DNA of 64,000 nt from Mobula hypostoma (lineage: Eukaryota). The stretch is from the NCBI RefSeq assembly GCF_963921235.1, contig NC_086097.1, positions 106,828,001-106,892,000 on the forward strand. The letters are read 5' to 3'. The notes under the pieces were generated by a model that was not told the origin of the DNA, made no database searches, and saw only the letters and a program-made list of their open reading frames with translations. The position numbers were made by a program, and so were the translations under genes. Shown piece by piece: positions 3,268-62,580 of the stretch; the stretch's first letter is position 1; every line of letters begins with the position of its first letter.

Positions 3268-3405
3268 GGTCCTGCCGAAGGATCTCAGCCCGAAACATTG
3301 ACCGTATATTTTTCCATAGATGCTGCCTAAGCTGCTGAGTTCCTCCAGCATTTTGTGTGTGTGTGTGTTGCTTTGATTTCCAGCATCTGTAGATTTTCTC
3401 TTGTC
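3268..3405 (+). mobile_element. Penelope-like pseudo-LTR fragment with decayed hammerhead motif (3268-3303)
   Basis: GGTC-CTGCCGA-AGGATCTCAGCCC-GAAACATT-GACC, followed by gatgctgcc...ttccagcatctg as in the larger PLE copies. Confidence 0.8.
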
Positions 3406-3409
3406 TCTA

Positions 3410-4335
3410 ATGAAGGCATCTATTAGTGATCCATTAAATACAACATTGGCTTTGTAGAAGGCATCAAAGGGTGGTAGTGTAGGGTTGGGTTTTCAGATTA
3501 AAGGCCTATGACCAGTAGGGCACCACAGGAATTGGTACTGGTTCCACTGTTGTTTGTCATCTGCATTAATGATTTACATGAGAATGTAGTTGGCATGATG
3601 AATAAGTCTGCAGATGACACCAAAACTTGTCTTCTCTGGTATTGATGGTATTGACTAACAGTGAAGAGGGTTATCTAAGATTACAACAGGGTTTAAGTCA
3701 ACTGGTGAAGTGGGCCTAAAAACAACAGATGGAATTTAACTCAGATAAGTGTGAGGTGTTCCTGTAAGTTAAACCAGGACAGGAATAACACAATAACCCT
3801 GGCAAGTATTGCAGAACAAGTACATAGTTCCCTAAAAGTGGATATATAGGTAGACAGGGTGATGAAAAAGACTTTGGGCATGTTTGCCTTCATCAATCTG
3901 GCCACTGAATGCAGGAATCGTGACATCGCATTGTAAGTCGTTGGTGAGACCAACTTGGTATTATGTGCCATTCTGGTCACCCAGCTTTAAGAAGGATGTC
4001 ATTAAGCTGAAAAGGGTGCAGAAAAGATTAGTGGGTATGTTACCAGGGACTGGAAGGCTTAAGTGATATGCAGAGGCTCGGACATTTTACCCTGTATCAA
4101 AGAAGGCAGAGGGGTGACCTTATAGAGGTATATAAAATCACAAGGGCAAGAATCACGTCTTTTTCACAGGGTAAGGGAATCTTAAACTAAAGCCAAAGGC
4201 TTAAAAGACATATAGACTCACGCATGGAGAGAGCAAGTTTAAAGGGATATGGGTCAAATGCATGCAAATGGGACCAGCTCATTTAAGACAACTTGATCAG
4301 CCTGGCTCTGTTTTCATGTTATATAATCCATGACA
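3410..4335 (+). mobile_element. Old degenerate CR1 LINE fragment
   Basis: Frameshifted remnants of the PQG..LGPLLF, ADDTK and FWSP...KRVQKR motifs plus 3' UTR. Confidence 0.8.
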
Positions 4336-5368
4336 ATGACAGCAAAATAAAATTACAAAGTTAAATATACTGCCTTAAGGCTTTACGTAAAGAAGATGCA
4401 TAATCCAACTAATCATCTTCATAATCACTGACAGAATATATTACCCAACAACCAAATATTTGATGTATTAAAGAAAACAGAAGCAACAAATGCTTAGAGA
4501 TAGAATTTTAATGATAGCATTAGAGAGCCATTCCAACACATTTGGTTAAAAAACAGAAACACTTCTCAGATCTGTGGGGTTCACAAGGCAAAGCTACTGC
4601 AATAAAATACCCATGTTGCTCTCTTTAAGCAGTGAAACATAGAGAGAATTAAAGTTCAACAAAGATAATCTCTGTATCAAACATACTAAATCACATGGCA
4701 TATAAATAATATTTTGTAAAACAATGTGAAACATTATGTTCATACATTACCAGAATAGATATAACCTTTAGAACAAAGTACTGAAATTAACAGATAGTGC
4801 AGGTTTAATTCTTCACAATGTAGGATTAATTCATATCCATCACATTTTGTGAAGACAACATACCAAACTTGTATTGCATGCTAATTAAACATTGTACCCA
4901 GAGCAGGTGTTAAACTGCACTGTTAGGTGGCTGCATGTCTCTCCAGATACCACATGGTGACATTCATGGAGCCACCACTAACAGGAAACTCAACTGGATT
5001 AGCCACACTAATGTCATTAAACTGAAAAGGGTACAGAAAAGATTAATGGGTATGTTACCAGGGACTGGAAGGCTTAAGTGATATGCAGAGGCTCGGACAT
5101 TTTACCCTGTATCAAAGAAGGCAGAGGGGTGACCCCAGCAAGGCAGAGGCTGGGCTTGCTTAAATGAGTGAGTCCTCTCTTTACACCCCAAACCTTTGAC
5201 TGTCAGGAATGTGATAGAATACTCACTAGCTACCTAACTCATAAGCACCCATTAACCTCAACACCATCCATGACAAAGCAGCCTACTGATTGATCCCATT
5301 TCAATCACCTTAAAAATTAATTCCATCCACCAGCAGCATAAAGTCTCAGAACAAAAAGCAAACTAGAC

Positions 5369-5448: not shown

Positions 5449-5513
5449 GTCAGGCAACACTTGTGGAGGGAAATGGATAGTCAGCACTTTAGATCGAGAT
5501 CTTTTATCTGGAC
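5449..5513 (-). mobile_element. Highly decayed PLE pseudo-LTR/hammerhead remnant
   Basis: Minus strand GTC-CAGATAA-AAGATCTCGATC-TAAAGTGCTGACT...tgcctgac aligns to the pLTR motif. Confidence 0.55.
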
Positions 5514-5579: not shown

Positions 5580-6900
5580 AGATTCTTAGAGATAGGATCT
5601 ATGGGCATTTAGAGAATCATGGTCTGATCAGGGACAGTCAGCATGGCTTTGTGAAGGGCAGATCGTGTCTAACAAGCCTGATAGAGTTCTTTGAGAAGGT
5701 GATCAGGCATACAGATGAGGGTAGTGCAGTGGATGTGATCTATATGGATTTTAGTAAGGCATTTCACAAGGTTCCACATGGTAGGCTTATTCAGAAAGTC
5801 AGAAGGCATGGGATCCAGGGATGTTTGGTCAGGTGGATTCAGAATTGGCTTGCCTGCAGAAGGCAGAGGGTCGTGGTGGAGGGAGTACATTCAGATTGGA
5901 GGATTGTGACTAGTGGTGTCCCACAAGGATCTGTTCTGGGACCTCTACTTTTCGTGATTTTTATTAACGACCTGGATGTGGGGGTAGAAGGGTGGGTTGC
6001 CAAGTTTGCAGACGACATAAAGATTGGTGGCGTTGTAGATAGTGTAGAGGATTGTCAAAGATTGCAGAGAGACATTGATAGGATGCAGAAGTGGGCTAAG
6101 GAGTGGCAGATGGAGTTCAACCCGGAGAAGTGTGAGGTGGTACACTTTGGAAGGACAAACTCCAAGGCAGACTACAAAGTAAATGGCAGGATACTTGGTA
6201 GTGTGGAGGAGCAGAGGGATCTGGGGGTACATGTTCACAGATCCCTGAAAGTTGCCTCACAGGTGGATAGGGTAGTTAAGAAAGCTTATGAGGTGTTAGC
6301 TTTCATAAGTCGAGGGATAGAGTTTAAGAGTCGCGATGTAATGATGCAGCTCTTTAAAACTCTGGTTAGGAGTACTTGGAGTACTGTGTCCAGTTCTGGT
6401 CGCCTCACTATAGGAAGGATGTGAAAGCATTGGAAAGGGTACAGAGGAGATTTACCAGAATGCTGCCTGGTTTAGAGAGTACGCATTATGATCAGAGATT
6501 AAGGGAGCTAGGGCGTTACTCTTTGGAAAGAAGGAGGATGAGATGAGACATGATAGAGGTGTACAAGATAATAAGAGGAATAGATAGAGCGGATAGCCAG
6601 CGCCTCTTCCCCAGGGCACTACTGCTCAATACAAGAGGACATGGCTTTAAGGTAAGGGGTGGGAAGTTCAAGGGGGATATTAGAGGAAGGTTTTTTACTC
6701 AGAGAGTGGTTAGTGCACGGAATGCACTGCCTGAGTCAGTGGTGGAGGCAGATACAGTAGTGAAGTTTAAGAGACTACTAGACAGGTATATGGAGGAATT
6801 TAAGGTGGGGGCTTATATGGGAGGCAGGGTTTGAGGGTCGGTACAATATTGTGGGCCGAAGGGCCTGTACTGTGGTGTACTATTTTATGTTCTATGTTCT
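5580..6900 (+). mobile_element. Young CR1 LINE (subfamily A), 5'-truncated
   Basis: RT ORFs 5651-6424 and 6550-6834; (TTCTATG)n tail; nearly identical to 7839-11059 and 52282-54083. Confidence 0.95.
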
Positions 6901-8388
6901 CACAATTCTACATTTCACCAACCAGGCAAATGGTAACACTGCCATCAATGTTCTCCTACAAGTCACATACAATCCAGACTCAAAAATATACTGTCATTTC
7001 TTTGTTATGGCTTGACTGCTACAGTTGAAGAAAGCTGTTCATCAAAGTCAGTTAATTAATTAAGGTCAATTAGTGCTGGGCAATACATTTGAGTTTATTC
7101 AGTTAAATGCCAGTCAACAGCACCTAATCCCAAACAAACAAATAAATTAGGAAAAAGAATATGTGATAACTACTCTAAATGTGCACAATGTATACAATCT
7201 CAAAAAAGTAACCCATTTACTTGCTACCTAAATATTACTTTGGGGACAGTATTTTTGTAATGCAAAACCACGGTTAATACTATATCCACAATTGCAAATA
7301 CAGTGGATTTCAGTTAATTTGGCCATCAGTTAAATGGGGTAACTGCTTATTTGGGACAAATCTTAAAGGATAAAAATTAATTGAGAAAATAGCTGAGATT
7401 CTCTTCATTTATTTGGGACACTGTGCCATTTAATTGGGACAGGAAACCATTGCCATACAGTTTCTAACAACAATTAATCGTGTGCAAATGTGTGGTCCCA
7501 TTTTAGAGTGAACAGTTTTTAAATAGCATCAGTTGCCTGTGTTTGTGTTAAAAAAGTGATTTTTGTCACTGATAGTTGGTGAGAAATAAGCAGTAAAACA
7601 ATTTAGAACTGCTTTGCTCAATGCGGTTTGTAGCATTCAGGCTTGGAGATATCATAAAGACCAGGAGTGAAAATTAAATGATGTGACTACTTCAACAAAT
7701 TAGGAACTACAAAGAATTTGAAGATATCAATAATAATTTTGAATATTACAATGAAAGTGAAGATTTGGAGGATGCAACTGTTGAAAGCACTGTATGACGA
7801 CAGTCCATTAGGTGTTGGCACTAATTTTGTTCATTTATATAGAACATAGAATAGTACAGCACAGTACAGGCCCTTCTGCCCACAATGTTGTGCCGACCCT
7901 CAAACCCTGCCTTCCATATAACCCCCAACTTTATATTCCTCCATATACCTGTCTAGTAGTCGCTTAAATTTCACTAGTGTATCTGCCTCCACCACTGACT
8001 CAGGCAGTGAATTCCACACACCAACCACTCTAAGAGTTAAAAACCTTCCTCTAATATCCCCCTTGAACTTCCCACCCCTTACCTTAAAGCCATGTCCTCT
8101 TGTATTGAGCAGTGCTGCCCTGGGGAAGAGGTGCTGGCTATCCACTCTATCTATTCCTCTTATTATCTTGTACACCTCTATCATGTCTCCTCTTATTCTC
8201 CTTCTCTCCAGAGAGTAAAGCCCTAGCTCCCTTAATCTCTGATCATAATGCATACTCTCTAAACCAGGCAGTATCCTGGTAAATCTCCTCTGTACCCTTT
8301 CCAATGCTTCCACATCCTTCCTATAGTGAGGCGATCTGAAATGGACACAGTACTCCAAGTGTGGCCTAACCAGAGTTTTATAGAGCTG

Positions 8389-9367
8389 ACAACAGGAATT
8401 CTGCAGATGCTGGAAATTCAAGCAACACACATCAAAGTTGCTGGTGAACGCAGCAGGCCAGGCAGCATCTCTAGGAAGAGGTGCAGTCGACGTTTCAGGC
8501 CGAGACCCTTCGTCAGGACTAACTGAAGGAAGACTGAGTAAGGGATTTGAAAGTTGGAGGGGGAGGGGGAGATCCAAAGTGATAGGAGAAGACAGGAGGG
8601 GGAGGGATAGAGCCAAGAGCTGGACAGGTGATAGGTAAAAGGGGATACGAGAGGATCATGGGACAGGAGGTCCGGGAAGAAAGACAAGGGGGGGGGAACC
8701 CAGAGGATGGGAAAGAGGTATATTCAGAGGGACAGAGGGAGAAAAAGGAGAGTGAGAGAAAGAATGTGTGCATAAAAATAAGTAACAGATCGGGTACGAG
8801 GGGGAGGTAGGGCCTTAGCGGAAGTTAGAGAAGTCGATGTTCATGCCATCAGGTTGGAGGCTACCCAGACGGAATATAAGGTGTTGTTCCTCCAACCTGA
8901 GTGTGGCTTCATCTTTACAGTAGAGGAGGCCGTGGATAGACATGTCAGAATGGGAATGGGATGTGGAATTAAAATGTGTGGCCACTGGGAGATCCTGCTT
9001 TCTCTGGCAGACAGAGCGTAGATGTTCAGCAAAGCGGTCTCCCAGTCTGCGTCGGGTCTTGCCAATATAAAAAAGGCCACATCGGGAGCACCGGACGCAG
9101 TATATCACCCCAGTCGACTCACAGGTGAAGTGTTGCCTCACCTGGAAGGACTGTTTGGGGCCCTGAATGGTGGTAAGGGAGGAAGTGTAAGGGCATGTGT
9201 AGCACTTGTTCCGCTTACACGGATAAGTGCCAGGAGGGAGATCAGTGGGGAGGGATGGGGGGGACGAATGGACAAGGGAGTTGCGTAGGGAGCGATCCCT
9301 GCGGAATGCGGGGGGGGGGGAAGGGAAAGATGTGCTTAGTGGTGGGATCCCGTTGGAGGTGGCGGAA
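8389..9367 (-). mobile_element. Penelope-like element (Neptune-like), 5'-truncated: GIY-YIG endonuclease plus pseudo-LTR
   Basis: ORF 8815-9141 contains GVIYCVRCSRCGLFYIGKTRRRLGDRFAEH (GIY-YIG), with a Cys-rich linker upstream and a pLTR with hammerhead downstream. Confidence 0.9.
8485..8520 (-). ncRNA. Minimal type-I hammerhead ribozyme motif, intact core
   Basis: RNA AGUC-CUGACGA-A-GGGUCUCGGCCU-GAAA-CG-UC^GACU: CUGANGA and GAAA boxes, stem I AGUC/GACU, short stem II, palindromic ACGU stem III, GUC cleavage triplet. Confidence 0.85.
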
Positions 9368-11340
9368 GAGCTGCATCATTATAGAGCTGCATCATTACCC
9401 CGCGATTCTTAAACTCTATCCCTTGACTTATGAAAGCTAACACTCCATAAGCTTTCTTAACTACCCAATCTACCTGTGAGGCAACTTTCAGGGATCTATG
9501 GACATGTACCCCCAAATCCCTCTGCTCCTCCACACTACCAAGTATCCTGCCATTTACTTTGTACTCTGCCTTGGAGTTTGTCCATCCAAAATGTACCACC
9601 TCACACTTCTCCAGGTTGAACTCCACCTGCCACTTCTCAGCCCACTTCTGCATCCTATCAATGTCTCTCTGCAATCTTCGACAATCCTCTACACTATCTA
9701 CAACACCACCAACTTTTGTGTCATCTGCAAACTTGCCAACCCACCCTTCTACCCCCACATCCAGATCGTTAATAAAAATCATGAAAAGTAGAGGTCCCAG
9801 AACAGATCCTTGTGGGACACCACTAGTCACAACACTCCAATCTGAACGTACTCCCTCCACCACAACCCTCTGCTTTCTGCAGGCAAGCCAATTCTGAATC
9901 CACCTGGCCAAACTTCCCTGGATTCCATGTCTTCTGACTTTCTGAATAAGTCTACCGTGTGGAACCTTGTCAAATGCCTTACTAAAATCCGTATAGATCA
10001 CATCCACTGCACTACCCTCATCTATATGCCTGGTCACCTCCTCAAAGAACTCTATCAGGCTTGTTAGACATGATCGCCCTAACACAGGGCCATGCTGACT
10101 GTCCCTGATCAGACCATGATTCTCTAAGTGCCCATAGATCCTAACTCTAAGAATCTTTTCCAACAGCTTTCCCACCACAGACATAAGGCTCACTGGTCTA
10201 TAATTACCCAGACTATCCCTACAACCTTTTTTAAACAAGGGGACAACATTCGTCTCCCTCCAATCCTCCAGTACCATTCCTGTAGACAACGAGGACATAA
10301 AGATCCTAGCCAGAGGCTCAGCAATCTCTACCCTCACCTCGTGGAGCAGCCTGGGGAATATTCCGTCAGGCCCTGGGGACTTACCCGTCCGAATGTATTT
10401 TAACAACTCCAACACCTCCTCTCCCTTAATATCAACATGCTCCAGAACATCAACCTCATATTGTCCTCATTGTCATCAAGTTCCCTCTCATTGGTGAATA
10501 TCGAAGATAAGTATTCATAGAGGACCTCACTCACTTCCACAGCCTCCAGGCACATCTTCCCACCTTTATCTCTAATTGGTCCTACCTTCACTCCTGTCAT
10601 CCTTTTGTTCTTCACATAATTGAAGAATGCCTTGGGGTTTTCCTTTACCCTACTCGCCAAGGCCTTCTCATGCCTCCTTCTTGTCCTCCTCAGCCCCTTC
10701 TTAAGCTCCTTTCTTGCTACCCTATATTCCTCAACAGATCCATCTGATCCTTGCTTCCTAAACCTCATGTATGCTGCCTTCTTCCACCTGACTAGATTTT
10801 CCACCTCACTTGTCACCCATAGTTCCTTCATCCTACCATTCTTTATCTTCCTCACAGGGACAAATTTATCCTTAACATCCCGCAAGAGATCCCTAAACAT
10901 CGACCACATGTCCATAGTACATTTCCCTGCAAAAACATCATCCCAATTCACACCTGCAAGTTCTAGCCTTATAGCCTCATAATTTGCCCTTCCCCAATTA
11001 AATATTTTCCTGTCCTCTCTGATTCTATCCTTTTCCATGATAATGCGAAAGGCCAGGGAATCAATCAAAAGAAGATACCAGTGTACACTGTATGAATTCC
11101 TCCATCGATGACTATTAGGAACTAATCCACAGTTTATAGTACTGATACTGATAGTGGTACTGATGGTGTTGAAATTTGTTCTGTATTTCATTTAAATACA
11201 CAGTTAAATGGAAGTTAGTCTTTTACAAACTTTTTAACTATTTCTATTAAACTTCAGCTAATTGGGGCAGCCACTAACAGGGCCAAAATGTACTGGTCCT
11301 GAAGTGTTCCAATTAACTGGAACCCAATTTACATTTAAAA

Positions 11341-17427: not shown

Positions 17428-18621
17428 TTAAAAATGCAAACACGAGGAAATCTGCAGATGCTGGAGATGTCCTCCTTTTTTAAAGAAAGGGGCTTCCCTT
17501 CCTCCACCATCAACTCTGCTCTCAAACGCATTGCTCCCATTTCACGCACATCTGCTCTCACTCTATCCTCCCACCACCCCACTAGGAATAGGGTTCCCCT
17601 TATCCTCAGCTACCATCCCACCAGCCTCCGGGTCCAACATATAATTCTCCATAACTTCCACCACCTCCAACGGGATCCCACCACTAAGCATATCTTTCCC
17701 TCCCACCCTCCCACCCCGGCTTTCCACAGGGATCGCTCCCTATGCAACTCCCTTATCCATTCGTACCCCCCATCCCTCCTCACCGATCTCCCTCCTGGCA
17801 CTTATCCTTGTAAGCGGAACAAGTGCTACACATCCCCTTGCACCTCCTCCCTCACCACCATTCAGGGCCCCAGACAGTCGTTCCAAGTGAGGCGACACTT
17901 CACCTGTTAGTCGGCTGGGGTGATATACTGCGTCCGGTGCTCCCGATGTGGTCTTCTATATATTGGCGAGACCCGACGCAGACTGGGAGATCATTTTGCT
18001 GAACACCTACGCTCTGTCCGCCAGAGAAAGCAGGATCTCCCAGTGGCCACACATTTTAATTCCACATCCCATTCCCATTCTGATATGTCCATCCACGGCC
18101 TCCTCTACTGTAAAGATGAAGCCACACTCAGGTTGGAGGAAAAACACCTTATATTCCATCTGAGTAGCCTCCAACCTGATGGCATGCACACTGACTTCTC
18201 AAACTTCCGCTAATGCCTTACCTCCCCCTCGTACCCCATTCGTTATTTATTTATATACACACATTCTTTTCCTCTCTCTCCTTTTTCTCCCTCTGTCCCT
18301 CTCACTCTATCCCTTGCCCATCCTCTGGGCTCCCCCCCCCCACTTTTCTTTCTCCCTAGGCCTCCTGTCCCATGATCCTCTCATATCCCTTTTGCCAATC
18401 AACTGTCCAGTTCTTGGCTCCATCCCCCCCCAACACCGCGCCCCTCCCCCTCCTGTCTTCTCCTATCATTTCGGATCTCCCCCTCCCCCTCTCAAATTTC
18501 TTACTAGCTCTTCTTTCAGTTAGTCCTGACAAAGGGTCTCGGCCCGAAACGTCAACTGTTCCTCTTTCTAGAGATGCTGCCTGGCCTGCTGCGTTCACCA
18601 GCAACTTTTATGTGTGTTGCT
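17428..18621 (+). mobile_element. Penelope-like element (Neptune-like) with an inverted terminal piece and 14-bp TSD
   Basis: ORFs 17434-17910 and 17920-18213 (CKRNKC linker, VIYCVRCSRCGLLYIGETRRRL) separated by one stop; pLTR at the 3' end; direct repeat GCTAATCTTTAAAT at 17414-17427 and 18619-18632. Confidence 0.9.
18522..18557 (+). ncRNA. Hammerhead ribozyme motif with mutated core (probably inactive)
   Basis: AGTC-CTGACAA-A-GGGTCTCGGCCC-GAAACGTC-AACT; CUGACGA is changed to CUGACAA and stem I has one mismatch. Confidence 0.75.
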
Positions 18622-19255: not shown

Positions 19256-19256
19256 A

Positions 19257-19386
19257 GAGAAGATTCTGTAGATGTTGGAAATCCAGAATAACATGCACAA
19301 AATGCTGGAGGAATTCCGCAGTTCAGGCAGCATCTAGGTAAAGGAATAAACAGTTGACATTTTGGGTCAAGACACTTCATCAGGAC
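19257..19386 (-). mobile_element. PLE pseudo-LTR fragment with decayed hammerhead (19352-19386)
   Basis: Minus strand GTC-CTGATGA-AGTGTCTTGACCC-AAAATGTC-AACT (GAAA changed to AAAA), then gatgctgcc...ttccaacatctacag. Confidence 0.8.
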
Positions 19387-19653
19387 AAAATGTGATTAGT
19401 GTAACTTGGTGCTTGATCATTGTCACTGTCTTGGTGGGCCAATGTGTCTGTGTCTGCATGCATGAATCTACATTGCCAGCTGGAGGTGGCCCATGGGTCA
19501 AATGTTTTCAGGACCGACCAAGAAGACAGGACAAGACAGACAGAGATAGATAAGAGTTATTGGGAGGTAGTCACACCGAAAAGACGGGAGGTAGGCAACT
19601 GGGTGACTGTCAGGAGATGGAGGGGGAGCAGGTAGAGAGAGCAGAGCACCCCT

Positions 19654-20301
19654 GTGGCCATTCCCATCAACAATAAGTATACCGTTTTGGATACTGTTGG
19701 TGGGGATGACCTACCAGGAACAAGTTGCAGTGGTCCTGTCTCTGGCACTGAGGTTGGACCCTCGACTCAGAAGGGGAGGAGGGAAGAGAGGACAGCGGTA
19801 GTGATAGGGGATTCTATAGTCAGGGGGGCAGATAGGAGATTTTGTGGGGGAGATCGGAAGTCTCGGATGGTATGTTGCCTCCCTGGTGCCGGGGTCCGGG
19901 ACATCTCAGATCGGGTGCAGGTTATTCTCGAGAGAGAGGGCAAGAATCCAGATGTTGTGGTCCACGTAGGGACCAACGACGTGGATAGGAAGAGTGAGGG
20001 GTTCCTGCGTAGTGAATTCAGGGAGTTAGCTGCGAAGCTGAAGGGCAGGACCTCCAGGGTAACAATCTCAGGATTGCTACCTGTGCCACGTGCGAGTGAG
20101 GCGAGGAACAGAAGGATTATACAGATCAATATGTGGCTGAGAGGATGGTGCAGGAGGGAGGGCTTCAGGTTTTTAGATAATTGGGCTTTGTTCCAGGGAA
20201 GGTGGGATCTGTTCCGACGGGACGGTTTACACCTGAACTGGAGGGGTACTAACATTCTTGCAGGAAAGTTTGCTAGTGCTGCTTGGGGGGGTTTAAACTA
20301 A
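19654..20301 (+). CDS. CR1 ORF1p, SGNH/GDSL esterase domain (N-terminus incomplete)
   Basis: VVIGDSIVRG, CCLPGA, VHVGTND and DGLHLN blocks. Confidence 0.9.
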   Translation: MAIPINNKYTVLDTVGGDDLPGTSCSGPVSGTEVGPSTQKGRREERTAVVIGDSIVRGADRRFCGGDRKSRMVCCLPGAGVRDISDRVQVILEREGKNPDVVVHVGTNDVDRKSEGFLRSEFRELAAKLKGRTSRVTISGLLPVPRASEARNRRIIQINMWLRGWCRREGFRFLDNWALFQGRWDLFRRDGLHLNWRGTNILAGKFASAAWGGLN

Positions 20302-23300
20302 ATTTGCAGGGGGCAGGGATCCAGAATGTGAGAGAGGATAGCGAGATGAAGTATAAAGGACAGGTGGGGACTACACGGTTCCAGAATATTAAGTGTGAAG
20401 TAGAGAAAGGTGAGGCAGAACGAGTGATAAGGAGGATACATGTGCAGAGGGATGGTCTGATGGAGCATGGAGTTAAATGTGCAGAAAGAGTAAGTACATT
20501 TAAGAAGGACAACAAAATTCAAGGGGCGTATAGCCCGGTGAGAGTTCAGGGAGCTGGGTTATGCACAATAGGCAGCGATTTAAACAGAGAGAGGAGAAAT
20601 AGGTTAAAAATTCTATATCTGAATGCACGAAGTGTCAGAAATAAGGCGCATGAGCTTGAAGCTCAGGTACGAATGGGTGACTACGATGTTGTTGGGATAA
20701 CAGAGACATGGCTGCAGGGGGATCAGACCTGGGAATTGAAAGTACAAGGGTATATGTGCTATCGAAGGGACAGAAAGGTGGGCAGAGGGGGTGGGGTGGC
20801 CCTGTTGGTGAGGAATGAGATTCAGTCCCTTGCAAGGGGGGACATAGAATCAGGAGAAGTAGAGTCAGTGTGGATAGAACTGAGGAACAGTGAGGGCAAA
20901 AAGACCCTAATAGGTGTTAGCTACAGGCCCCCAAACAGTAGCATGGATATTGGGTGCAAGTTGAATAGGGAGTTAACAATGGCATGTGGCAAAGGAAATG
21001 TCGCAGTAGTTATGGGGGATTTCAACATGCAGGTGAACTGGGAAAATCAGGTTGGTACTGGACCCCAGGATATGGGAGTTTGCAGAGTGCCTACGGGATG
21101 CATTTCTGGAGCAGCTTGTACGAGAGCCGACCAGGGATAAGGCTATTCTGGATTTAGTGTTGTGCAATGAACAGGACTTGATAAGTGATTTTGAAGTAAA
21201 GGAGCCATTAGGAGGTAGTGACCATAATATGATAAGTTTTTATCTGCAAGTTGAGAGGGATAAGGGCAGATCAGAAGTGTCAGTATTGCAGTTGAACAAA
21301 GGAGACTATGGAGCCATGAGGGAGGAGCTGACCAAAGTTGACTGGTTGGATATCCTAGCAGGAAAGACAGTAGAACAGCAATGGCAGGTATTCTTGGGAA
21401 TAATGCACAAGGTGCAAAATCAGTTCATCCCCCGGAGAAGGAAGGATTCAAAGGGGGGAAAGTGGCCACAGTGGTTGACAAAGGAAGTCAGAGACAGCAT
21501 AGCATTAAAAAAGAAGTATAACAGAGCTAAGGTGAGTGGGAAGACAGATGATTGGGAAATTTTTAAGGAGCAACAGAACTTAACTGAAAAGGCAACACGG
21601 GGAGAAAAAATGAGGTATGAATGCAAGCTAGCTAGGAATATAAAGGAGGATAGCAGAAGTTTTTTTTAGGTATGTGAAGAGAAGGAAGATAGTTAAGAAC
21701 AATGTTGGGCCCTTGAAGAATGAATTGGGAGAAATTGTTATGGGAAACAGAGAAATGGCAGACGAATTCAATAAGTACTTTGGATCTGTCTTCACTATAG
21801 AAGACACAAGCAATCTCCCAGGTGTATGGATGGGCCAAGGACATAGGGTAACAGAGGAGCTAAAACAGATTGACATTAGGAAGGAAACGGTGATGAGTAG
21901 ACTGATGGGACTAAAGGCTAACAAATCCCCAGGTCCAGATGGTCTGCATCCTAGGGTACTAAAGGAGGTGGCTCTGGAAATTGTGGATGCATTGGTGATC
22001 ATTTTCCAATGTTCCTTAGATTCAGGATCAGTTCCTGAGGATTGGCGAATGGCTAATGTTATCCCACTTTTTAAGAAAGGAGGGAGGAAGAAAACAGAGA
22101 ACTATCGCCCTGTTAGCCTAACACCAGTAGTGGGGAAGATGCTAGAGTCCATTACTAAAGATGAAATAGCGGCATATCTTGATAGCAGTGATAGAATTGG
22201 GCTGAGCCAGCATGGATTTACCAAGGGCAAATCACGATTGACTAATCTATTGGAGTTTTTCGAGGATGTAACCAGGAAGATAGCCACGGGAGATCCACTG
22301 GATGTGGTGTACCTTGACTTTCAGAAGGCATTTGATAAGGTACCACATAGGAGATTGGTGGGTGAAATCAGAGCTCATGGCATTGGGGGGAGGATATTGA
22401 CATGGATAGAAAACTGGTTGGCAGATAGAAAGCAAAGGGTAGCAGTGAATGGGTGTTTCTCGGAATGGCAGGTGGTGACTAGTGGGGTGCCACAGGGCTC
22501 GGTATTGGGACCACAGCTGTTTACGATTTACGTCAATGATTTAGAGGAAGGCATTGTGAATAACATCAGCAAATTTGCTGATGATACTAAGCTGGGTGGC
22601 AGTGTGACATGTGATGAGGATGTTAGGAGAATTCAAGGTGACTTGGATAGGCTGGGTGAGTGGGCAGAAACTTGGCAGATGGCGTTTAATGTGAACAATT
22701 GTGAGGTTCTTCACTTTGGGAGCAAGAACAGGAAGGCAGATTATTATTTGAACGGTGTGGAGTTAGGTAAGGGAGAAATACAAAGAGATCTAGGAGTACT
22801 TGTTCATCAGTCTCTGAAGGTAAATGAGCAAGTGCTGCAGGCAGTGAAGAAGGCTAATGGAATGTTGGCCTTTATTACAAAGGGTATTGAGTACAAAAGC
22901 AAGGAAATCCTTTTGCATTTGTACAGGGCCCTGGTGAGACCACACCTGGAGTATTGTGTGCAGTTTTGGTCTCCAGGATTAAGGAAGGACATCTTGGCTG
23001 TGGAGGAGGTGCAGCGTAGGTTCACTAGGTTAATTCCTGGGATGTCCGGACTGTTTTACGCAGATAGGTTAGAGAGACTGGGCTTGTAAACGCTGGAATT
23101 AAGGAGATTGAGGGAGGATCTGATTGAGACATATAAGATTATTAAGGGATTGGACAAGATAGAGGCAGGAAATATGTTCCAGATGCTGGGAGAGTCCAGT
23201 ACCAGAGGGCATGGTTTAAGAATAAGGGGTAGGTCATTTAGGACAGAGTTGAGGAGGAACTTCTTCTCCCAGAGAGTTGTGGAGGTGTGGAACACGCTGC

Positions 23301-23413
23301 CTCAGAAGGCAGTGGAGGCCAATTCTCTGGATGCTTTCAAGAAGGAGCTAGATAGGTATCTTATGGATAAGGGAATCAAGGGTTATGGGGACAAGGCAGG
23401 AACCGGGTATTGA
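20283..23413 (+). pseudogene. CR1 ORF2 (APE endonuclease plus reverse transcriptase), disrupted
   Basis: [36 protein letters not shown] and FADD motifs; frameshifts near 21070 and at the T-run near 21665, and a stop at 23087-23089. Confidence 0.92.
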
Positions 23414-25817
23414 TAGTAGATGATCAGCCATGATCTCAGAATGGTGGTCAGGCTCGAAGGGCCAAATGGTCTACTTCTGCACCTATTGTCTATTGACAAC
23501 CAGCAACATAATAACTGGACTATCTCAAAGTTTTCCTACATGTTGGAATTGGAAAATTTATTGTTCACCATTGTTAGATCTAATTCCTGAAACTTCCTGC
23601 TCTGCATTATGAGATTTCCTTGCAGTTGTTATGTAGAGCAGTTAAACATAAGCAATAATTGCTCAGCTTGCCAGTAATATCTATATCATATAAATGAATA
23701 AAAATAAATCTTAGTAAATACATTCTGTAATTTCTTCAGAGCCACAGAAGTCGTAAGCATCTATTTCTAAAAGGCTTATGGGAAAATGGTACAAACTTCT
23801 GAAATCAGTACCAGTTTACAATTCATATAAATATAGAAAGATCCCTTTTTCAGAAAAAGATGCTTTTTTAAAAACATACTAGTAATGGGTTCATACCAAT
23901 ATTATTTTTCCCATTGGTTAAAGAAGTACAGCACTAAATCTTATACTACACAATACTTTAAATATTTTACCTAATTCTCTATAAGTATTAGAAGTTCAAC
24001 AGTGGGTAAGCATTTCAGAGGTACACTCCAAAATGGAATGTCACCAAATGAAAGCATTCATTGGCAATGGGTCTACAATTAACATCAATAAAATGGTAGT
24101 GTCTGAATTTCTCTCCCAAGTACTAACTGCAAGCAGAGCAGTCAGTACCCAAATTAACTGCAATTACTACTACAGGCAAAGCACAAAGTATCGAATTTCA
24201 CTCCCTAATTCCTATTTCATGTGTTTGAACTTGTGAAGTGGGAATTCTTGGCAACCTACCAATGCTCATCCCAATGCCGCTCCCAACTAAATAGGACACA
24301 GGATAGAGTCACTCACCTTCTCAAGTCTCTCGTCACATACAGCCAGACTTGATTAAAATGGCCAAATTTCCCTTCAATTGAAGGACATGAGTGAAACAGA
24401 CTGGGTTGCAGAACAATTGACTCATTTCATTGAAAAAGACTGCACTTTTTAATTTCAAATTTATTTACTTACAGGATTAATTAGCAGCATGATGGGATTC
24501 AAACCAATGTCTCTGGATCAATAGTCCAGGCCTCTGGACACTAGCCCATAGAATTAAAAGAAGCACTACTGTAACTTCATAAAATAAAAATTGTAAGCAG
24601 GGCTGAATTCCGAATCTGGACTCATTCAAAAATATTAATTTGTTGAATTATATTCTCTAAATTTTCTACATAATAAAAGCTGTCTCCTTTCGGCTTCTGG
24701 TACTTGTGTACTACACTGCTTTTTCATGGAAGGAACAAAGTGGTATTTTTGATAACATAACTATCGAATGCATTTAAAAACACCGATAAAGTGTTTCAGA
24801 TCAGGTCAGTCTTCAATTACAATAATGTATGAGTTTCATAAGCTGTTTATATTCTATATTTGGAAAAAATCAACTACTTATAGAACCCTATTTTCAGAAC
24901 TAGATCAGCTAAAACTATTGAGAAAACAAGGAGGAATTTGATTCTATCTATAACCAAAAGAGACTTACTCTTAGCAAAAAGAGAAAAAAAAGTGTAGACA
25001 TGAGGGAGTGATAATGTCTAGCCGAAGGCATCTGTTGTAAAACAAATCACTGAGCTGCTAAATCGGCTATATCAATGCTCTATCAGTGTCTGTGTTCCAA
25101 ACAAATCAGAACACAAGAAGGCGAAGATTTGGGTCAATAAGCTTAGGTGATTTACACATATAACTCCTCGAGCAAGGTAGAAACAAAGTCATATTGGCTT
25201 TTTTTTTTGCAGCTTTGTGCACCCAGCTTCTGTCAGTCCAAAGAGAACTCCAAATGTTAATATAATATGCTCTGTAACTCAGATAATTTAAAGAGCTCAA
25301 ATTCATAATCCTCACAAAATGTAAAGTGGCTTTGAAGATTTTGATATTAAACGACACAAAGGCAAAGTGATCAAGGCACAGGCACTGAGTATTGATGCTA
25401 CTAGACGGATTCACACATTGGCATGGGATCTATCATTACAGCTGCTTAAGAAAGACAGAAGAATATTGACTGAAAAGGTTTGAAGGCCAGACAAAAACTG
25501 GTGCCTGATTAGAAAATGTATGACATGAACCATTGAAAGCTATCTGATGAAGAACCTGCAGCAAGGAATTAAGGCAAAGTGGAAAAGTGTCATATAGAAA
25601 AGCTTAATTACTCTAAAAATATTAAAGAAGAAGAACAGAAATATCTTGACTATTATCATGTGTTTTATTAGGAATATTAAAACAATGAAGACAGCGAATT
25701 AGATTCCAACAACTGTTATGAGTTGAAAGTCATGAAATTCTATCATATACAGTACGGCAATATTTTCTGTGCACTACCGAAATGAATTTTATCAAAAACA
25801 CAGCAGTGTTGGCACAA

Positions 25818-25980
25818 ACAACAGGAATTATGCAGACGCTGGAAATTCAAGCAACACACATCAAAGTTGCTGGTGAACGCAGCAGGCCAGGCAGCATCTC
25901 TAGGAAGAGGTACAGTCGACGTTTCAGGCCGAGACCCTTCGTCAGGGCTAACTGAAGGAAGTTAGTAAGAGATTTGAAAG
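25818..25980 (-). mobile_element. PLE pseudo-LTR fragment
   Basis: Near-identical to 8389-8550. Confidence 0.9.
25914..25949 (-). ncRNA. Minimal hammerhead ribozyme motif, intact core, one stem-I mismatch
   Basis: AGCC-CUGACGA-A-GGGUCUCGGCCU-GAAA-CG-UC^GACU. Confidence 0.8.
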
Positions 25981-36430: not shown

Positions 36431-38308
36431 ACCGGTCCTTATCCTTTAATAATACCTCAGCTTCACTCCTTATATTTCCAAACTCGAAAAATATACTGCT
36501 ATCTGGCGAATGAAGCTACACAGTTTATTCCCGTCAAAGAGTCAAAAAAAATAGGCAGATGCTGCAAATCTGAAACAAATCAGAAAATGTGCAGATCCTG
36601 AGCAGGTCTGACAGCATTTCAGAAGAGGGAAAGAGTTAATATTATTGATTGATGGCCTTTCATCCGAGTTTGCTGCTGTTCCTGTCTCCTCTGAACAGTC
36701 ATACCAGTTTCCCACAAAACTGTTGTCAGTACTGCTCCCTCGGTCTCTAGGCCAATCCATTCATTCTTGGTCATTTCAAACTCCAGACCTTTCCAATCTC
36801 CCTTACTATCTTTCTTCAAACAAATTAATTTTTTAGATTTTACCCCACCTCACCAAACTCTACCCTAAGCACCACAGCAACCAGGACATGTCATGTATTA
36901 TTGCAATGGTATTAATGACATACAAGGCTATGTCTTCTCTGTCTCCGCTCACAACACACTTCCCCCTCCTCATCCCAATTTTTTCTCCATTCTCTCATTT
37001 AAATACATGCTGTCTAGCTTTGGCCTTCGTTCACTATTGCGCAGGATACAGTACATCTGGAATTTGATGTGCTATCAAATGATATCACTGACAAACAGTG
37101 TGCAAATGATAAAATGAGAAGGTATTGGGTGATTTGAAGGTGAGAGTTAGTACCTGAAAGGAGAAAAACTGTTTCAATGAGGTTTCTGTAGCTAACAGCA
37201 TATTTAGCCATTTTCACAGCTACACTTCTAATGTATTTATTGGCAGTAAAACTCTGAGACCCTCGAACTGTGGGCATTCTCCCTATAAACAACCCTAGTC
37301 CGTTTTGTGACATTAAAGGACATGGTCTTAAATCTTTATAGTGAACCGCTGATTTAAACCCCCAATACCACATCTGATGTGAACACATAAAGCTTTCTGA
37401 TGTTAATTTCCTTTGCTAAATGTACTACCATAGCAGGACAATTATGAAATGCAAAGATAAGCCCCTGCTTCTCTTTACCACTACTAATCATCCACCTTAT
37501 CATCCACCTCCCTCCAGCCTCACTACTAACAAGTACAGTGAGATTTAGACCTTCATGCCACCAAGTTTGTCTGCTTTAATTCCCAGAATGCTGCTGTTCA
37601 GAGAGATCTTAGTGTCCTCATACACAAACTACTATATGTTAACAAATAGGAATTGGGGAGGGAGTCGAAGTCAATTGAAATGTTGGGCTTTATTGCAAAG
37701 AGGATTGAGCAAAAACGTAGGACAACCTTGCTAAAACTACACAGGACATTTGTGGGATCTGAAGTACAGTGCACAAATGTGTTTTCCTTATACTGAGCCA
37801 GTACAAATTTGGTTCCTGAGATTACAGCATTAGCCAATGAGGAAAGCCTGCTCTGGTTGGGCCAATACTCATCAGAGCGAGAGCATGAGAGTTATTCAAT
37901 TGAAACATACACAAATATGAGCAATGTGAAAGAGAGATGCTGAGAGGACGATTGCTCTTGTAAACAACATTTCAATGGCAGTTTATCTTACACACAGTGA
38001 AATAGCTGTATTGTTATTCATCACTTTCATTGCTAAATATTTTGCAGTATTGCATAAAAATTCATCACAGATAGAGAACAAACACTTTTTTTAAAACAAT
38101 CTTATATTTAATATTCAAAGCTTTTAGTTATTGCATCACACTTGTAATGAATAATTACAACTATTTCTGTGTATCTTTAAAAATCTAATTTACTTATTTT
38201 TATAAGTTATGGAAGTGCTTTTCTCACTTAGGTCTTCAGTGTTATCACTTTTGTTGTTTTGCATGCAGAATTGATTCAGTCTTCAGAAATATCAAACGCT
38301 GTAGTCGC

Positions 38309-39021: not shown

Positions 39022-39240
39022 TGTGGCGACCCACTTTCTATACAAGCGAACCGGCTCAGAAAATAGCCCGCGCATGGGGAGAGACTTTTGTAATGCACCT
39101 CTGACGCCATTTCTGCCCGGAGAGGGCTGAAAGAGAACTGCTTAAAAGCCAGTGCTGTGAAGTTTAAATAAACGAGTCTCGAGTGCGACTTACAGACTGC
39201 GTGTCATTATTTCTAGCTCAGTGTGTAGCACATCGCTACA
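39022..39240 (+). repeat. 5' LTR
   Basis: TGTGGCG...CGCTACA with internal AATAAA; direct repeat of 43013-43222. Confidence 0.93.
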
Positions 39241-39241
39241 T

Positions 39242-39255
39242 TGGTGACCCCAACG
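39242..39255 (+). promoter_or_regulatory. Primer-binding site, tRNA-Trp type
   Basis: TGGTGACCCCAACG directly after the LTR; complementary with one mismatch to the tRNA-Trp 3' end (TGGTGACCCCGACG, recalled). Confidence 0.8.
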
Positions 39256-39279
39256 GTCCAAACGGGATTTGGACCAAAG

Positions 39280-42200
39280 ATGATCAACTCTTCTTCATCT
39301 GTTCACGCAGTTTCACTAAAACTGCCAGCTTTCTGGACGCTGCAACCACGCGTGTGGTTTGACCAAGCAGAAGCCCAGTTCCAGATTCGGCAGATATCTT
39401 CGGATTCCACACATTACTATTACGTGGTGAGCTCCCTTGACCAGGAGACAGCTGCACGGGTTGGGGATTTCATACAGTCACCCCCCGAAGAAGGCAAATA
39501 TGCAGCATCCAAAGCGCTGCTCATAGAGACCTTTGGCCTCTCACGGTGTGAGCAAGGTGCCCGCTTGCTGCACCTGGACGGTTTGGAAGACAGGCCGCTG
39601 TCAGCATTAATGAACGATATGCTGGCCCTGGCTAAAGGACACAAGCCCTGCCTCATGTTTGAGCAGGCGTTCCTAGAACAACTGCCCGAGGACATACATC
39701 TACTGCTGGCCGAGGGAGATTTCAGTGACCCCCGGAAGGTGGCAGCCCGGGAAGACGTGCTGTGGAAAGCCAAGAGGGAGGGCGGGGCGTCCGTCGGACA
39801 GATTACCAAGCCACGCGCTCAACAGCAGGCCAGACCAGGCCCGGCAACCGAGCGCACACAACCCAGAGGAAGGAGTGAGGAGACCAATGAATAGTGGTGT
39901 TTCTACGACCAGTGGTGGGGCACAGAAGCCAGCCGTTGTTGCCCACCCTGCAAGTTCCAGGGAAATGCCAGGGCCAGCCGCCAATGACTATGGCAGCTGG
40001 CCACCAGGACAGCTTCCTGTACGTCTGGGACAAGCAGTCGCGACGCCGCTTCTTAGTCGACACTGGAGCGGAGATCAGCGAATTACCCCCAATGGGGTAT
40101 GACACCCGCAACAGGGCGACCCTGATGGCCGCAAACAGCAGCACGATTTGGACCTACGGCACCCGCACAGTTCAGCGCCAGCCGGTTCACATGGTACTTC
40201 ACACTGGCCGCCGTGGCCCAACCACTCCTGGGGGCGGACTTCTTGCGAGCCCACAGCCTGCTGGTTAATTTGCAAGGGAAAAGACTGGTCTATGCCAAGA
40301 CTTTCCAGACGTTCTCCCTGGGTGAAGCCAAGTTGCCGGCCCCACACCTCGACTCCATCACGCTATCTGACAATGAATTCACCAGAATCCAGGCGGACTT
40401 TCCATCGGTTTTGGCACCACAGTTCACGGCAGCCATGCCCAGACACAGAGTACAGCACCACATTCTGACCCGGGGACCACCACTCCATGCCTGCGCACGA
40501 AGGCCCCCTTGGACAAGCTCTGCCTGGCGAAGGAGGAGTTCAAGAGGATGGAGGAATTGGGGTCGTACGGCGGTCCGACAGCCTCCCACTTGCACATGGT
40601 TCCCAAAGCAGCCGGGGGCTGGAGACCATGCGGTGACTACCGCAGACTGAATGAGGCTACAACTCCAGACCGCTACCCCGTGCCACACCTACAGGACTTT
40701 GCAGCAAACCTGCATGGGGCAAGCATCTTTTCCAAAGTAGACCTCGTCTGGGGGTACCATCAAATTCTGGTACACCCTGAAGACATCCCCAAAACAGCAC
40801 TCATCACCCCGTTCGGCCTGTTCGAATTCCTCCAAATGCCGTTCGGCCTGAAGAATGCCGCACAGACGTTCTAGCGACTAATGGATGCGGTGGGATGCGA
40901 CCTGGACTTTGCATTCATCTATTTGGACGACATCCTCATAGCAAGCAGTAGTCATCAGGAGCATCTGTCCCACCTCCGCCAGCTCTACTCCTGCCTGAGT
41001 GATTTCGGCCCCGTGATCAACCCAGCCAAATGTCAGTTCAGACTCGACACCATCGACTTCCTGGGCCACAGGATTACCAAAGACGGGGCAACACCTCTGC
41101 CCGCCAAGGTAGACGCGATCCGCCACTTCGCCCGGCCCAACACAGTCAAAGGCCTGCAGGAGTTCATTGGTATGGTGAACTTCTATCACCGCTTCCTCCC
41201 CTCAGCAGCCCATATCATGCGCCCTTTGTTCACCCTGATGTCGGGTAAAGGCAAGGACATTACTTGGGACGAAGAGGCCGCGGCCGCTTTTGTTAAAGCC
41301 AAGGAAGCCTTGGCAGACGCTGCGATTCTGGTGCACCCCAGAACGGATGTTCCAACCGCCCTCACAGTGGACTCATCCAACACAGCAGTCGGTGGGGTGC
41401 TGGAGCAACTCATCAAGGGGCACTGGCAACTCCTGTCGTCCTTTAGCAGGCACCTACGGCCACCCAAACTCAAGTACAGTGCCTTCGACCGGGAGCTGTT
41501 GGCACTATATCTGGCAATCCGGCATTTCAGGTACTTCTTAGAAGGCAGGCCGTTCATCGTGTTCACGGACCACAAACCGTTGACCTTAGCATTCACAAAG
41601 GTGTCCGATCCCTGGTCGGCCCGCCAGCAGCGACATCTGTCCTACATCTCCGAGTACACGACGGACATCCAGCATGCCTGGGGAAAGGGCAACATCATGG
41701 CAGATGCGCTCTCCAGACCAGCTGTCCAGGCCCTGACCCAGGGGGTGGAATATGCAGCACTGGTGGAGGCGCAACAGGCAGACGACGAGATGCCCAGCTA
41801 CAGGACCGCAGTCTCGGGTTTGCAGCTGCAAGACTTCCTCATAGGCCCAGGTGAGAGGACCCTCCTGTGTGACGTGGCTACCGGCCAACCTCGCCCCATC
41901 TTCCCGGTAGTCTGGCGGCGGCGAGTTTTCAACTTCATACACAGCTTGGTGCACCCATCTATCAGGACAACTGTCTGGATGGTCTCCAGTAAGTTCGTGT
42001 GGCACAGACTTCACAAACAGGTCAGTGAATAGGCCAAAACGTGCACGCAGTGCCAAACAGCCAAGGTTCAGCGGCACACCAAAGCCCCGCCGCAGTGGTT
42101 CGAACCCACCTGCCGGAGGTTCGACCACATTCGTGTGGATATCGTGGGGCCCCTGCCAGTGTCACGAGGAGTGCGGTACCTCCTAACTATGATAGACCGG

Positions 42201-43000
42201 TTCACCAGATGGCCAGAGGCGGTCCCGCTCAACGACACCACCGCCGATTCCTGCGCCCGAGTGCTGATTGCAAACTGGGTAGCACGCTTCGGGATACCAG
42301 CCCACATTACCTCCAACAGAGGTGCCCAGTTCACCTCCAGCCTGTGGTCGGCTGTGGCCAGCCTATGAAGAACACAATTACACCACACAACTGCCTACCA
42401 TCCACAGTCGAACGGACTAGTGGAACGCTTCCACCGTCACCTGAAATCGGCTCTCATGGCTGGCCTGGAGGGGCCTAACTGGGTGGACCAACTTCCCTGG
42501 GTCCTGCTCAGAATCCGCACGGCGCCCAAGGAGGATCTGCACACCTCGTCGGCCGAGCTGGCGTACGGCACACCCCTGGTCGTCCCAGAAGAGTTCATAC
42601 CAGCCTCAAGGGGGCAAGAGGAAGAACCCGCAGCAGTCCTGGACAGACTATGCGAAAGGCTCAGCAACCTGGCCCCCGTACCGACTTCACAGCATGGACA
42701 GATCCCGACCTGCGTACCCAAAGACCTGCAGAACTGTTAGTTTGTATTCATACGAAGGGGCACACACCGGGCACCACTACAGCGGCCGTACGAGGGGCCG
42801 TTCAAGGTGATCAGTAACAACGGGTCCACGTATGTTCTGGACACTGGGGGGAAAGAGGAGGTTTTCATGGTGGACCGACTCAAACCGGCCCATGTGGACT
42901 TGGCACAGCCAGTCGAGGTTCAGGCACCGCGGCGCAGGGGCAGACCACCCAGACAGAGACTGATCCAGACTGTGGACATTGGGGGTGTATCGCCGGCTCT
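39280..43000 (+). pseudogene. Gypsy gag-pol, disrupted by stops and frameshifts
   Basis: Gag LKLPAFW...WF.QAEAQF; protease [20 protein letters not shown] and YLDDILIAS; RNase H LTVDSS and FTDHKPL; integrase DIVGPLP, IDRFTRW, HPQSNGLVER and a GPF motif. Confidence 0.93.
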
Positions 43001-43012
43001 GGGGGCGGGGGG

Positions 43013-43222
43013 TGTCACTTTCTACACGTGAAACGGCTCACAAAATAGCCCACACACGGGGAAAGACTTTTGTAATGCACCTCTGATGTCATTTCCACCC
43101 GGAGAGGGCTGGAAGGAAACTGCTTAAAAGCCAGTGCCGCGAAGTTTGAATAAACGGGTCTCGAGTGCGACTTACAGACTGCGTGTCATTATTTCTAGCT
43201 CTGTGTGTAGCACATCGCTACA
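43013..43222 (+). repeat. 3' LTR (7-bp deletion near its start)
   Basis: Aligns to 39022-39240. Confidence 0.93.
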
Positions 43223-43756
43223 TTATGATCTTTGGTGGAATCAATTACCTTTGATCCCAAATCAAGGCTATCACTAATGTTATTTTAAGACTGTAATTCA
43301 GTCTTAATATAGTGATATCATAGTCATAGTTCAAGTTTAATTGTCACTCAACCATACATGAATACCCATGAATACAAACAAAGCAGCGTCACTACAGGGC
43401 CAAGGTGCAAAACAAGAGTACCAACAATCACACAGCCCAAGGCACACAGATAACAAGCACATAAGTCACACAAAAGTATAGTCTACTTACATTCCATACT
43501 TACGGAGTTCTATTTAGATTGTAGTTAGTTATTACATTAACATTTCATAATTTTACTTCTGCAGTTATTGTAAATAAATCATTTGTTCTATATATGTAAA
43601 TATAAAATAATAAATCTCACAATAGAGGGTTCAATGGTGGATTTCTCTCAACTACCACAGAGACATTTTCAACACTCAGCTGCCAGTTCTTCAACAGGCA
43701 TCAAACAGAGAAAACTCCACTGGTGTTCACATGAATGTAAAACATCCATGAGATAG

Positions 43757-46999: not shown

Positions 47000-47108
47000 A
47001 AACACAAGGGATTCTGCAGATGAAGGAAATCTACAGTAACACACACAAAATAGTGGAGAATTCAGCAGGTCAGGCAGCATCTATGAAGGGGAATAAATGA
47101 CCAATGTT
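47000..47108 (-). mobile_element. PLE pseudo-LTR fragment lacking the hammerhead core
   Basis: ttctgcagatg...cagcaggtcaggcagcatctatg matches the pLTR; similarity ends near the ribozyme cleavage site. Confidence 0.7.
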
Positions 47109-54083: not shown

Positions 54084-54409
54084 AAATAGAGTGGATGTGG
54101 AGAGGATATTTTTAAAAGTTGGAAGTCTAGGACCAGAGTGCACATCCTCAGAACAGAGGGATGTCCCTTTAGAATAGAGCTGAAGAGGAATTTTTTTTAA
54201 ATCTTTGAAAGGGAGTATCAAGTTACAGCTATGAGGATCCTTGCAGCATCTGGTGACCTTGAGATCTCTGTCTTGGAGACTGTCTTTCAAGGGGGTAAAC
54301 CCTCACAAGGCGAAAGGCTTTGATGATTTTCCTATAGGGCTCTGAAAACCAGTGCCAACCAACTGACAGTTATGTTCAAAGATATTTTCAATCTTCTCTA
54401 AATGTTTGC

Positions 54410-62497: not shown

Positions 62498-62580
62498 AGT
62501 TTTGATAAAGGGCCTTCAACCTGAAGTTAACTCTTTCCTCTTTCCACCGATGCTGAGAGCTTCCAGCAGTTACTGCTTTT
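62498..62580 (+). mobile_element. Ancient PLE pLTR/hammerhead remnant
   Basis: AGTT-TTGATAA-AGGGCCTTCAACCT-GAAGTT-AACT then gatgctg...ttccagca. Confidence 0.55.

Follow-up and report, generated by a model that had tools for sequence, protein, structure and literature searches.

The 36-base motif on the minus strand at 8485..8520 of the window (the whole 64,000-nucleotide stretch of DNA analysed here) is a minimal hammerhead sequence in the terminal repeat of a young, very abundant Penelope-like element (PLE) of Neptune type, and it is probably a slow, protein-dependent ribozyme that mostly remains uncut during reverse transcription. Judged by its letters, it belongs to the minimal PLE hammerhead class by every feature but C11.1. 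Counted from its first base (+1 = 8520), it comprises a 4-bp stem I (AGUC/GACU), CUGACGA, an extra A, stem II with a U at position 11.1, GAAA, a palindromic ACGU and C17. Hammerhead rules and the established core numbering predict a cut after C17 (GUC/GACU), at 8488..8489 on the minus strand. The earlier note had described a 36-mer here with CUGACGA, GAAA, UC and a 4-bp stem I but had given no strand; all of these are present, on the minus strand, and related sequence was found at all seven other positions at which the motif was said to recur. The whole core is kept in only two of the eight window copies (8485 and 25914). The core pattern matches six times in the window against 1.49 expected, a number reached by none of 100 shuffles, and two of the six matches are unrelated.

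The other copy with a whole core is a short young one at 25815..25980 (-), with its 5' end at about -32 and one stem I mismatch in its motif (25914-25949). An older truncated copy at 17464..18621 (+) retains the end of the endonuclease and the pLTR, and its motif at 18522-18557 has decayed, with G8 lost and a stem I mismatch. A short copy at 3269..3402 (+) belongs to an older lineage with C6 in the core and starts at motif +2, and a short old copy starting from the motif edge (19256..19386, -) has lost G12 and shows an apparent target duplication on either side. Two decayed, weakly related remnants lie at 5479..5513 (-) and 36630..36670 (-), and a possible remnant at 62498..62532 (+) matched, as an nhmmer seed, nothing but itself in 1.06 Mb. 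An old leader fragment without the motif, absent from the earlier list, was found at 47007..47085 (-).

The motif at 8485..8520 sits close to the 3' end of a young, 5'-truncated PLE insertion of 980 bp (8389..9368, -), which contains the endonuclease end, the 3' UTR, the pLTR with the motif and the leader to about +132. Its C-terminal CX4CXXC linker and GIY-YIG endonuclease (8815..9327, -) share 96% identity with the intact ORF P0002. A 10-bp target-site duplication has its 3' copy at 8379..8388 (-) and its 5' copy at 9380..9389 (-), after which 11 bp of target DNA are copied a second time (9369-9379). The PLE is hosted by a CR1-type LINE (7839..11037, -), which is split into 7839-8388 and 9379-11037. 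Three young CR1-type copies of one family, 92-96% alike, occupy 5580-6895, 7839-11037 and 52282-54088 of the window, and the family carries PLE insertions elsewhere too, for example at locus L018.

The CUGANGA...GAAA...UH core is present in the window motif and in the two motifs that intact units carry. Closure is possible for helix I (4-5 bp) and for helix II, and helix III is a palindrome only. The unpaired base between positions 9 and 10.1 is present in the motif and is an A in 26 of 40 homologous motifs. At 10.1-11.1 the young family has a G-U pair (T in 55 of 66), and the older groups mostly have C; a G10.1-C11.1 pair is conserved, not absolute, in PLE minimal hammerheads. A search with the Rfam hammerhead families, a check asked for by the earlier note, returned no match in the window, and Rfam on positions 1800-2200 of locus L051 returned just two sub-threshold matches, both unrelated. 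Minimal hammerheads were described from the pLTRs of metazoan PLEs, among them the fish elements Xena, Poseidon and Neptune, by Cervera and De la Pena in 2014 (PMC4209133, in part). The motif shares with that class, as characterised in the available part of the paper, the core boxes, the lack of a stable helix III, the palindromic 15.2-16.2, the extra base between 9 and 10.1, the helix I of 4-5 bp, a single motif in each pLTR with about 3 kb between them, and many single and opposite-strand pairs. It differs from the class in the U at 11.1 of the young family, and its 4-bp helix II is unlike the 7-8-bp helix II of the Schistosoma families; identical copies number at least 32,886 here, against about 9,000 in Xenopus and about 4,000 in the coelacanth (PMC4209133, in part). 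One supplement of that paper contains no shark or skate names, and a literature search made without most subscription titles and Repbase turned up no publication dealing with PLE hammerheads of elasmobranchs.

Across the 3.48-Gb genome there are 32,886 exact occurrences of the 36-mer and none of its reversed control, and young leaders number at least 85,245. A sample of 800 kb of unselected DNA contained 41 motifs of the family in which the core is complete, and 133 homologous pieces; this puts the total at some 100,000 copies or above, although the sample overshoots the exact count by about 1.45. Searching with the ORF's 5' portion gave 30 loci, of which 14 long copies were extended; in seven of these, two identical motifs at a distance of about 3.5 kb enclose an unbroken ORF for RT and GIY-YIG. 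The complete unit runs motif, 134-nt leader, 1,016-aa RT/endonuclease ORF, 3' UTR, motif and tail, with the motif in both pLTRs on the sense strand, and identity between units is about 99%. Full-length units mostly have a partial copy upstream, and the layout shows pLTRs formed from partial tandems, inverted 5' copies and an optional tail, in agreement with the arrangement known from PLEs. The 3' ends fall in two clusters, 54 of 149 at +96 to +101 and 52 of 149 at +133 to +141.

P0002 (1,016 aa) has Pfam RT and GIY-YIG matches, both under the curated cut-off. It carries a CX4CXXC linker between RT and endonuclease and, by eye, cysteines between the GIY and YIG boxes (a CCHH motif). Neptune-clade features include a CX2-5CXXC linker, cysteines between the boxes, plus GIY-YIG at the C terminus (Craig et al. 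2021, PMC8557442, in part). By that scheme the linker and cysteines exclude the Penelope/Poseidon, Hydra and N-terminal-endonuclease clades; Penelope/Poseidon is marked by a missing linker, and the zinc linker is present in P0002. A Neptune-type assignment thus fits the domain layout, the clade being placed by motifs alone. The element also shows the 5' truncation, partial tandems, inverted 5' copies and 30-40-bp tail of the Neptune clade, and is distinct from the available description (PMC8557442, in part) in the clear 7-15-bp target duplications on its insertions, among which no bias towards microsatellite targets was noticed. The best named protein relative, from the bamboo shark Chiloscyllium punctatum, is 72% identical (70% over 600 aa). 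The identity proposed in the earlier note, a hammerhead module of an elasmobranch Neptune-like family, is therefore retained: the motif is of the minimal type I hammerhead kind and sits in a pLTR belonging to a Neptune-layout PLE, an elasmobranch host being probable. The label "self-processing module" is unproven: neither the monomer nor the dimer is predicted to fold in the active form, the insertion ends show no clear excess at the cut site, and a lineage with an A6C core nonetheless amplified. P0002 residues ~160-285 (L051 2600-3000) form a long proline/serine-rich insert that lengthens this ORF by about 100 aa compared with most full-length relatives.

Selection on the fold had been claimed from stem I covariation across copies, and this reasoning did not survive. 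The 18522 copy reads AGUC/AACU, with a C.A mismatch from CpG decay. The 3268 copy, with its GGUC, is truncated and begins at motif +2, so its first G is 5' junction DNA, and the source of AGUU/AACU is the solitary 62498 remnant. Genome-wide, the outer stem I pair is A..T in 32,886 copies, G..T in 962, A..C in 178 and G..C in 8, the last being the double change, of which 5.2 would be expected if the two changes were independent (P=0.16). On these counts within-genome stem covariation was rejected as evidence of selection. Because copies decay freely once inserted, a covariation test belongs between lineages.

We therefore turned to 80 metagenome loci encoding relatives at 30-63% identity. A pairing descriptor found 24 sense-strand motifs in 23 of the 80 loci, two antisense ones and none in 20 shuffles. 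Since this descriptor required pairing, covariation was counted solely on a core-only scan, which required none and gave 43 sense and 12 antisense hits against 4.25 per shuffle. In 40 distinct sense rows, which include alternative readings of one site and chance hits, 101 of 160 stem I positions were Watson-Crick paired against 44.8 in permutations, and 74 of 120 stem II positions against 33.9; the pair types were many, and none of 5,000 permutations reached the observed pairing, a test that related sequences inflate. Helix III was palindromic in 22 of these 40 homologous motifs, compared with 8 of 85 from shuffled sequence. The stem pairing beyond permutations and the sense-strand excess make selection on the hammerhead fold across distant homologous PLEs well supported. 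In older subfamilies within the genome, whose copies were found with motif-containing seeds, the commonest core letters are those of the young motif except at CpG columns, column 24 and in the C6 lineage, and the flanks differ. The identity of motif against flank (0.94 vs 0.47-0.86) was set aside because the copies had been selected by motif.

In its best predicted fold, at -10.0 kcal/mol, the 36-mer has its core paired to the cut strand; the hammerhead form is predicted at -6.0 kcal/mol. Pairing probabilities in the 36-mer are 0.65-0.89 for stem I and 0.95 for stem II. For the dimer, the active type is predicted at -9.5 kcal/mol against -28.3 kcal/mol for the best structure. Folding energy as a sign of structure was uninformative (z = -0.61). 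The older lineage spread while carrying an A6C core: among the first 100 listed of 1,461 non-A6 matches, obtained with a narrow pattern and tallied by hand, position 6 is C in 84, T in 9 and G in 7, and neutral decay would favour G. C6 is found in 9 of 67 callable copies in 800 kb (66 further pieces are uncallable), and several C6 copies have diverged endonuclease remains upstream. In other hammerheads A6C strongly lowers Mg2+ cleavage (PMC7151607, in part). The core C6 is common to the lineage and the A6C hammerhead of phage Bcep176, which is a phage ribozyme preferring Mn2+, whereas the Mobula C6 motif belongs to a multi-copy PLE lineage (PMC7151607, in part).

The ends of insertions provide a record of the templates that were copied. 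A 30-mer was scored as a 5' end if a purine stood before it in place of the element's pyrimidine; this gave 261 at -4, 1,894 at +1, 367 at +17 and 1,137 at the cut site, +33. Insertion 5' ends thus peak at the first base of stem I (+1/+2), and starts at +1 make up about 4-5% of motif copies, the denominators for +1, +17 and -4 being estimates. Each of the 30 inspected +1 cases was a junction lying on +1 or no more than a few bases away: 13 were stand-alone inserts (95-142 bp) that had target duplications, 15 adjoined an inverted copy and two were other arrangements. Six of the 13 stand-alone inserts join target DNA without an extra base. Among downstream-anchored copies (the first ~100 on C1, 101 found), 10 of 101 have their start between 0 and +2, where 1.6 would be expected (P of about 7e-6 in a window chosen post hoc; this sample cannot show +33 ends). 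The peak has broad shoulders, with 12 of 101 at +5 to +11 and 14 of 101 at -30 to -7. Ahead of +1 we found no overall excess of a cap-type G (45 G and 55 A in the first 100 listed, counted by hand), and a G stands at some resolved junctions. At L002, L268, L279 and L363, which are unrelated insertions, the same short run of additional bases ending in TG precedes +1.

At the cut site there was no clear excess of ends: the 1,137 cases stand beside 85,245 leaders, and the 30 inspected (L303 and L304 among them being one locus) included 16 point variants and no stand-alone inserts. An apparent 3-4-fold excess was rejected, since the larger denominator and the point variants reduce cut-site junctions to about 0.6%, similar to controls. 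In three of the 30 (L290-L292) the join falls precisely on +33 with no microhomology, and these may derive from cleaved RNA; several other +33 junctions use short shared letters. Within L283-L312, 13 of 16 C17 point variants are G, not A, perhaps a small sub-lineage with a non-cleavable site.

The +1 peak and the A6C lineage together suggest that reverse transcription takes place mostly on uncleaved RNA. We infer that transcription would often begin with the first base of stem I or a neighbouring one, in which case the RNA has motif plus leader at both ends. Reverse transcription would start internally, at one of two tail sites, and would usually read through the uncut motif. A start on the 3' repeat would give the usual truncated copies; one on the 5' repeat would run off at +1 and yield motif-led inserts of 95-140 bp, or jump to another template, and such jumps would build the inverted and partial-tandem structures. 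By analogy with other PLEs, the cut after GUC would require the PLE protein or a second copy supplying stem III, and would serve RNA processing or turnover without being indispensable for insertion. The lack of +33 ends need not mean that there is little cleavage in the cell, because cleaved RNA would leave none if it were circularised or degraded.

A more specific form of this account, which we put forward tentatively, holds that transcription starts at the first base of the hammerhead itself, that ribozyme and leader together act as a region like retroviral R, and that internally primed strong-stop cDNAs of 95-140 nt run off at +1 and then insert as motif-led mini-elements or transfer to the 3' repeat, building partial tandems without cleavage or a circle. 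Of 22 homologous motifs, 8 have a TATA-like box 26-50 nt upstream of the core; in other windows the figure is 16 of 153. The +1 base fits an initiator consensus, and the motif edge also resembles a 3' splice site. TATA plus initiator has been described in a rotifer PLE pLTR (PMC3846280, in part), and a likeness to a 3' splice site at the motif edge in Drosophila virilis Penelope (PMC4209133, in part). A single start site leaves the shoulders at +5 to +11 and -30 to -7 unaccounted for. We looked for splicing to the motif edge and found no GT..AG joint ending there among the joints listed (15 of 18; 15 of 156). At L051 ~5450-5486 and at window 8519-8545 (-), a branch-point-like heptamer and a pyrimidine tract are followed by AG before or at the motif start; the stretch occurs in young and old subfamilies and, with so many copies, could be a common source of cryptic acceptors.

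Partial tandems also figure in the 2014 proposal (PMC4209133, in part), in which two motifs per transcript cleave as a dimer, the unit RNA circularises, and reverse transcriptase rounds the circle, so that cleavage is required. Circular or degraded products, which leave no +33 ends, would be compatible with this model. It accords with the two identical motifs 3.5 kb apart in intact units, the usual position of the partial copy upstream of full-length units, the palindromic stem III of the homologues and the low dimer cleavage of a Schistosoma motif in vitro (PMC4209133, in part). We nevertheless regard it as doubtful, for a circle has no +1 end, where about one copy in twenty or slightly fewer begins, the active-type dimer lies far above the best dimer in predicted energy, the A6C lineage amplified with a core change that cuts Mg2+ activity (PMC7151607, in part), and Anolis core mutants still insert in vitro (PMC11167929, in part).

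It is unlikely that the +1 peak arose artefactually, through template switching or microhomology at the inverted repeat of stem I, and has no bearing on transcript starts. Half of the inspected +1 cases do lie next to an inverted copy, the peak is broad-shouldered and +33 junctions share short letters, as such an origin would have it; against it stand the stand-alone inserts on target DNA, six of them without an extra base, and the TATA-like boxes before the core. Least probable, and in our view improbable, is that the family's motif no longer cuts and is kept as a promoter, splice-acceptor or protein-binding element at the start of the transcript, with an inherited hammerhead look: the U in place of conserved C11.1 in the young family, A6C in the older lineage, the best fold and the initiator-like and splice-site-like edge would suit this, but older subfamilies keep the core letters outside the exceptions given above, the stems covary among homologues, and a related Anolis motif cleaves with C3-G8 dependence (PMC11167929, in part).

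The preferred reading of a slow, mostly uncut hammerhead agrees with one in vitro study, that of the Anolis carolinensis Poseidon element PAc (Frangieh et al. 2024, PMC11167929, in part), whose motif cuts only with protein, whose cleavage is not needed for insertion in vitro, and whose reverse transcription starts internally at two sites. PAc and the Mobula PLE have in common the pLTR motif and, probably, two RT start sites that define the tail and uncleaved RNA as the main template; PAc has no RNA ends at the cut site, and the Mobula insertion ends show no clear excess there. They differ in clade (PAc is without the zinc linker), in the position of the ORF, which begins inside the motif in PAc and 134 nt past it in Mobula, and in the type of evidence, biochemical for PAc and genomic here (PMC11167929, in part). 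Non-LTR retrozymes are short, motif-bearing, non-coding units related to pLTRs, found in the one chondrichthyan sampled (bioRxiv 10.64898/2026.07.22.740005, in part). They form tandem arrays, whereas the short Mobula inserts are dispersed single or inverted pieces that share ends with the autonomous element; among the loci inspected we found no tandem arrays of ORF-less motif monomers.

The identification itself is ordinary; its value lies in scale and testability. With an intact element and tens of thousands of young copies, insertion ends can tell which RNA templates were copied; this is relevant to the literature's open question of what the PLE hammerhead does and how partial tandems arise, and the counts favour uncleaved templates starting at the ribozyme. 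The A6C lineage is a natural core variant. If the reading with a retroviral-R-like region is true, the ~85,000 young copies would be a natural experiment in which a PLE hammerhead stays uncut in vivo while being copied, in a genome that also shows that a lineage with an A6C core can spread.

Several further features were observed. At an inversion junction in L004 (5620-5845), a ~100-bp stretch of the 5' part of the ORF stands in tandem. The window holds a Gypsy-type LTR retroelement (39032-43224, +) with two 211-bp repeats 89.6% alike and broken frames, in which remains of DUF7041, RT, RNase H and an integrase zinc finger can be recognised. A LINE at 19636-23301 (+) has an SGNH/GDSL esterase-like ORF1, followed by AP endonuclease and RT. 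Direct repeats of 1.2 kb (45250-46415 and 47544-48721, 85% identity) and of 124 bp (3996-4119 and 5011-5134, 97.6%) are also present.
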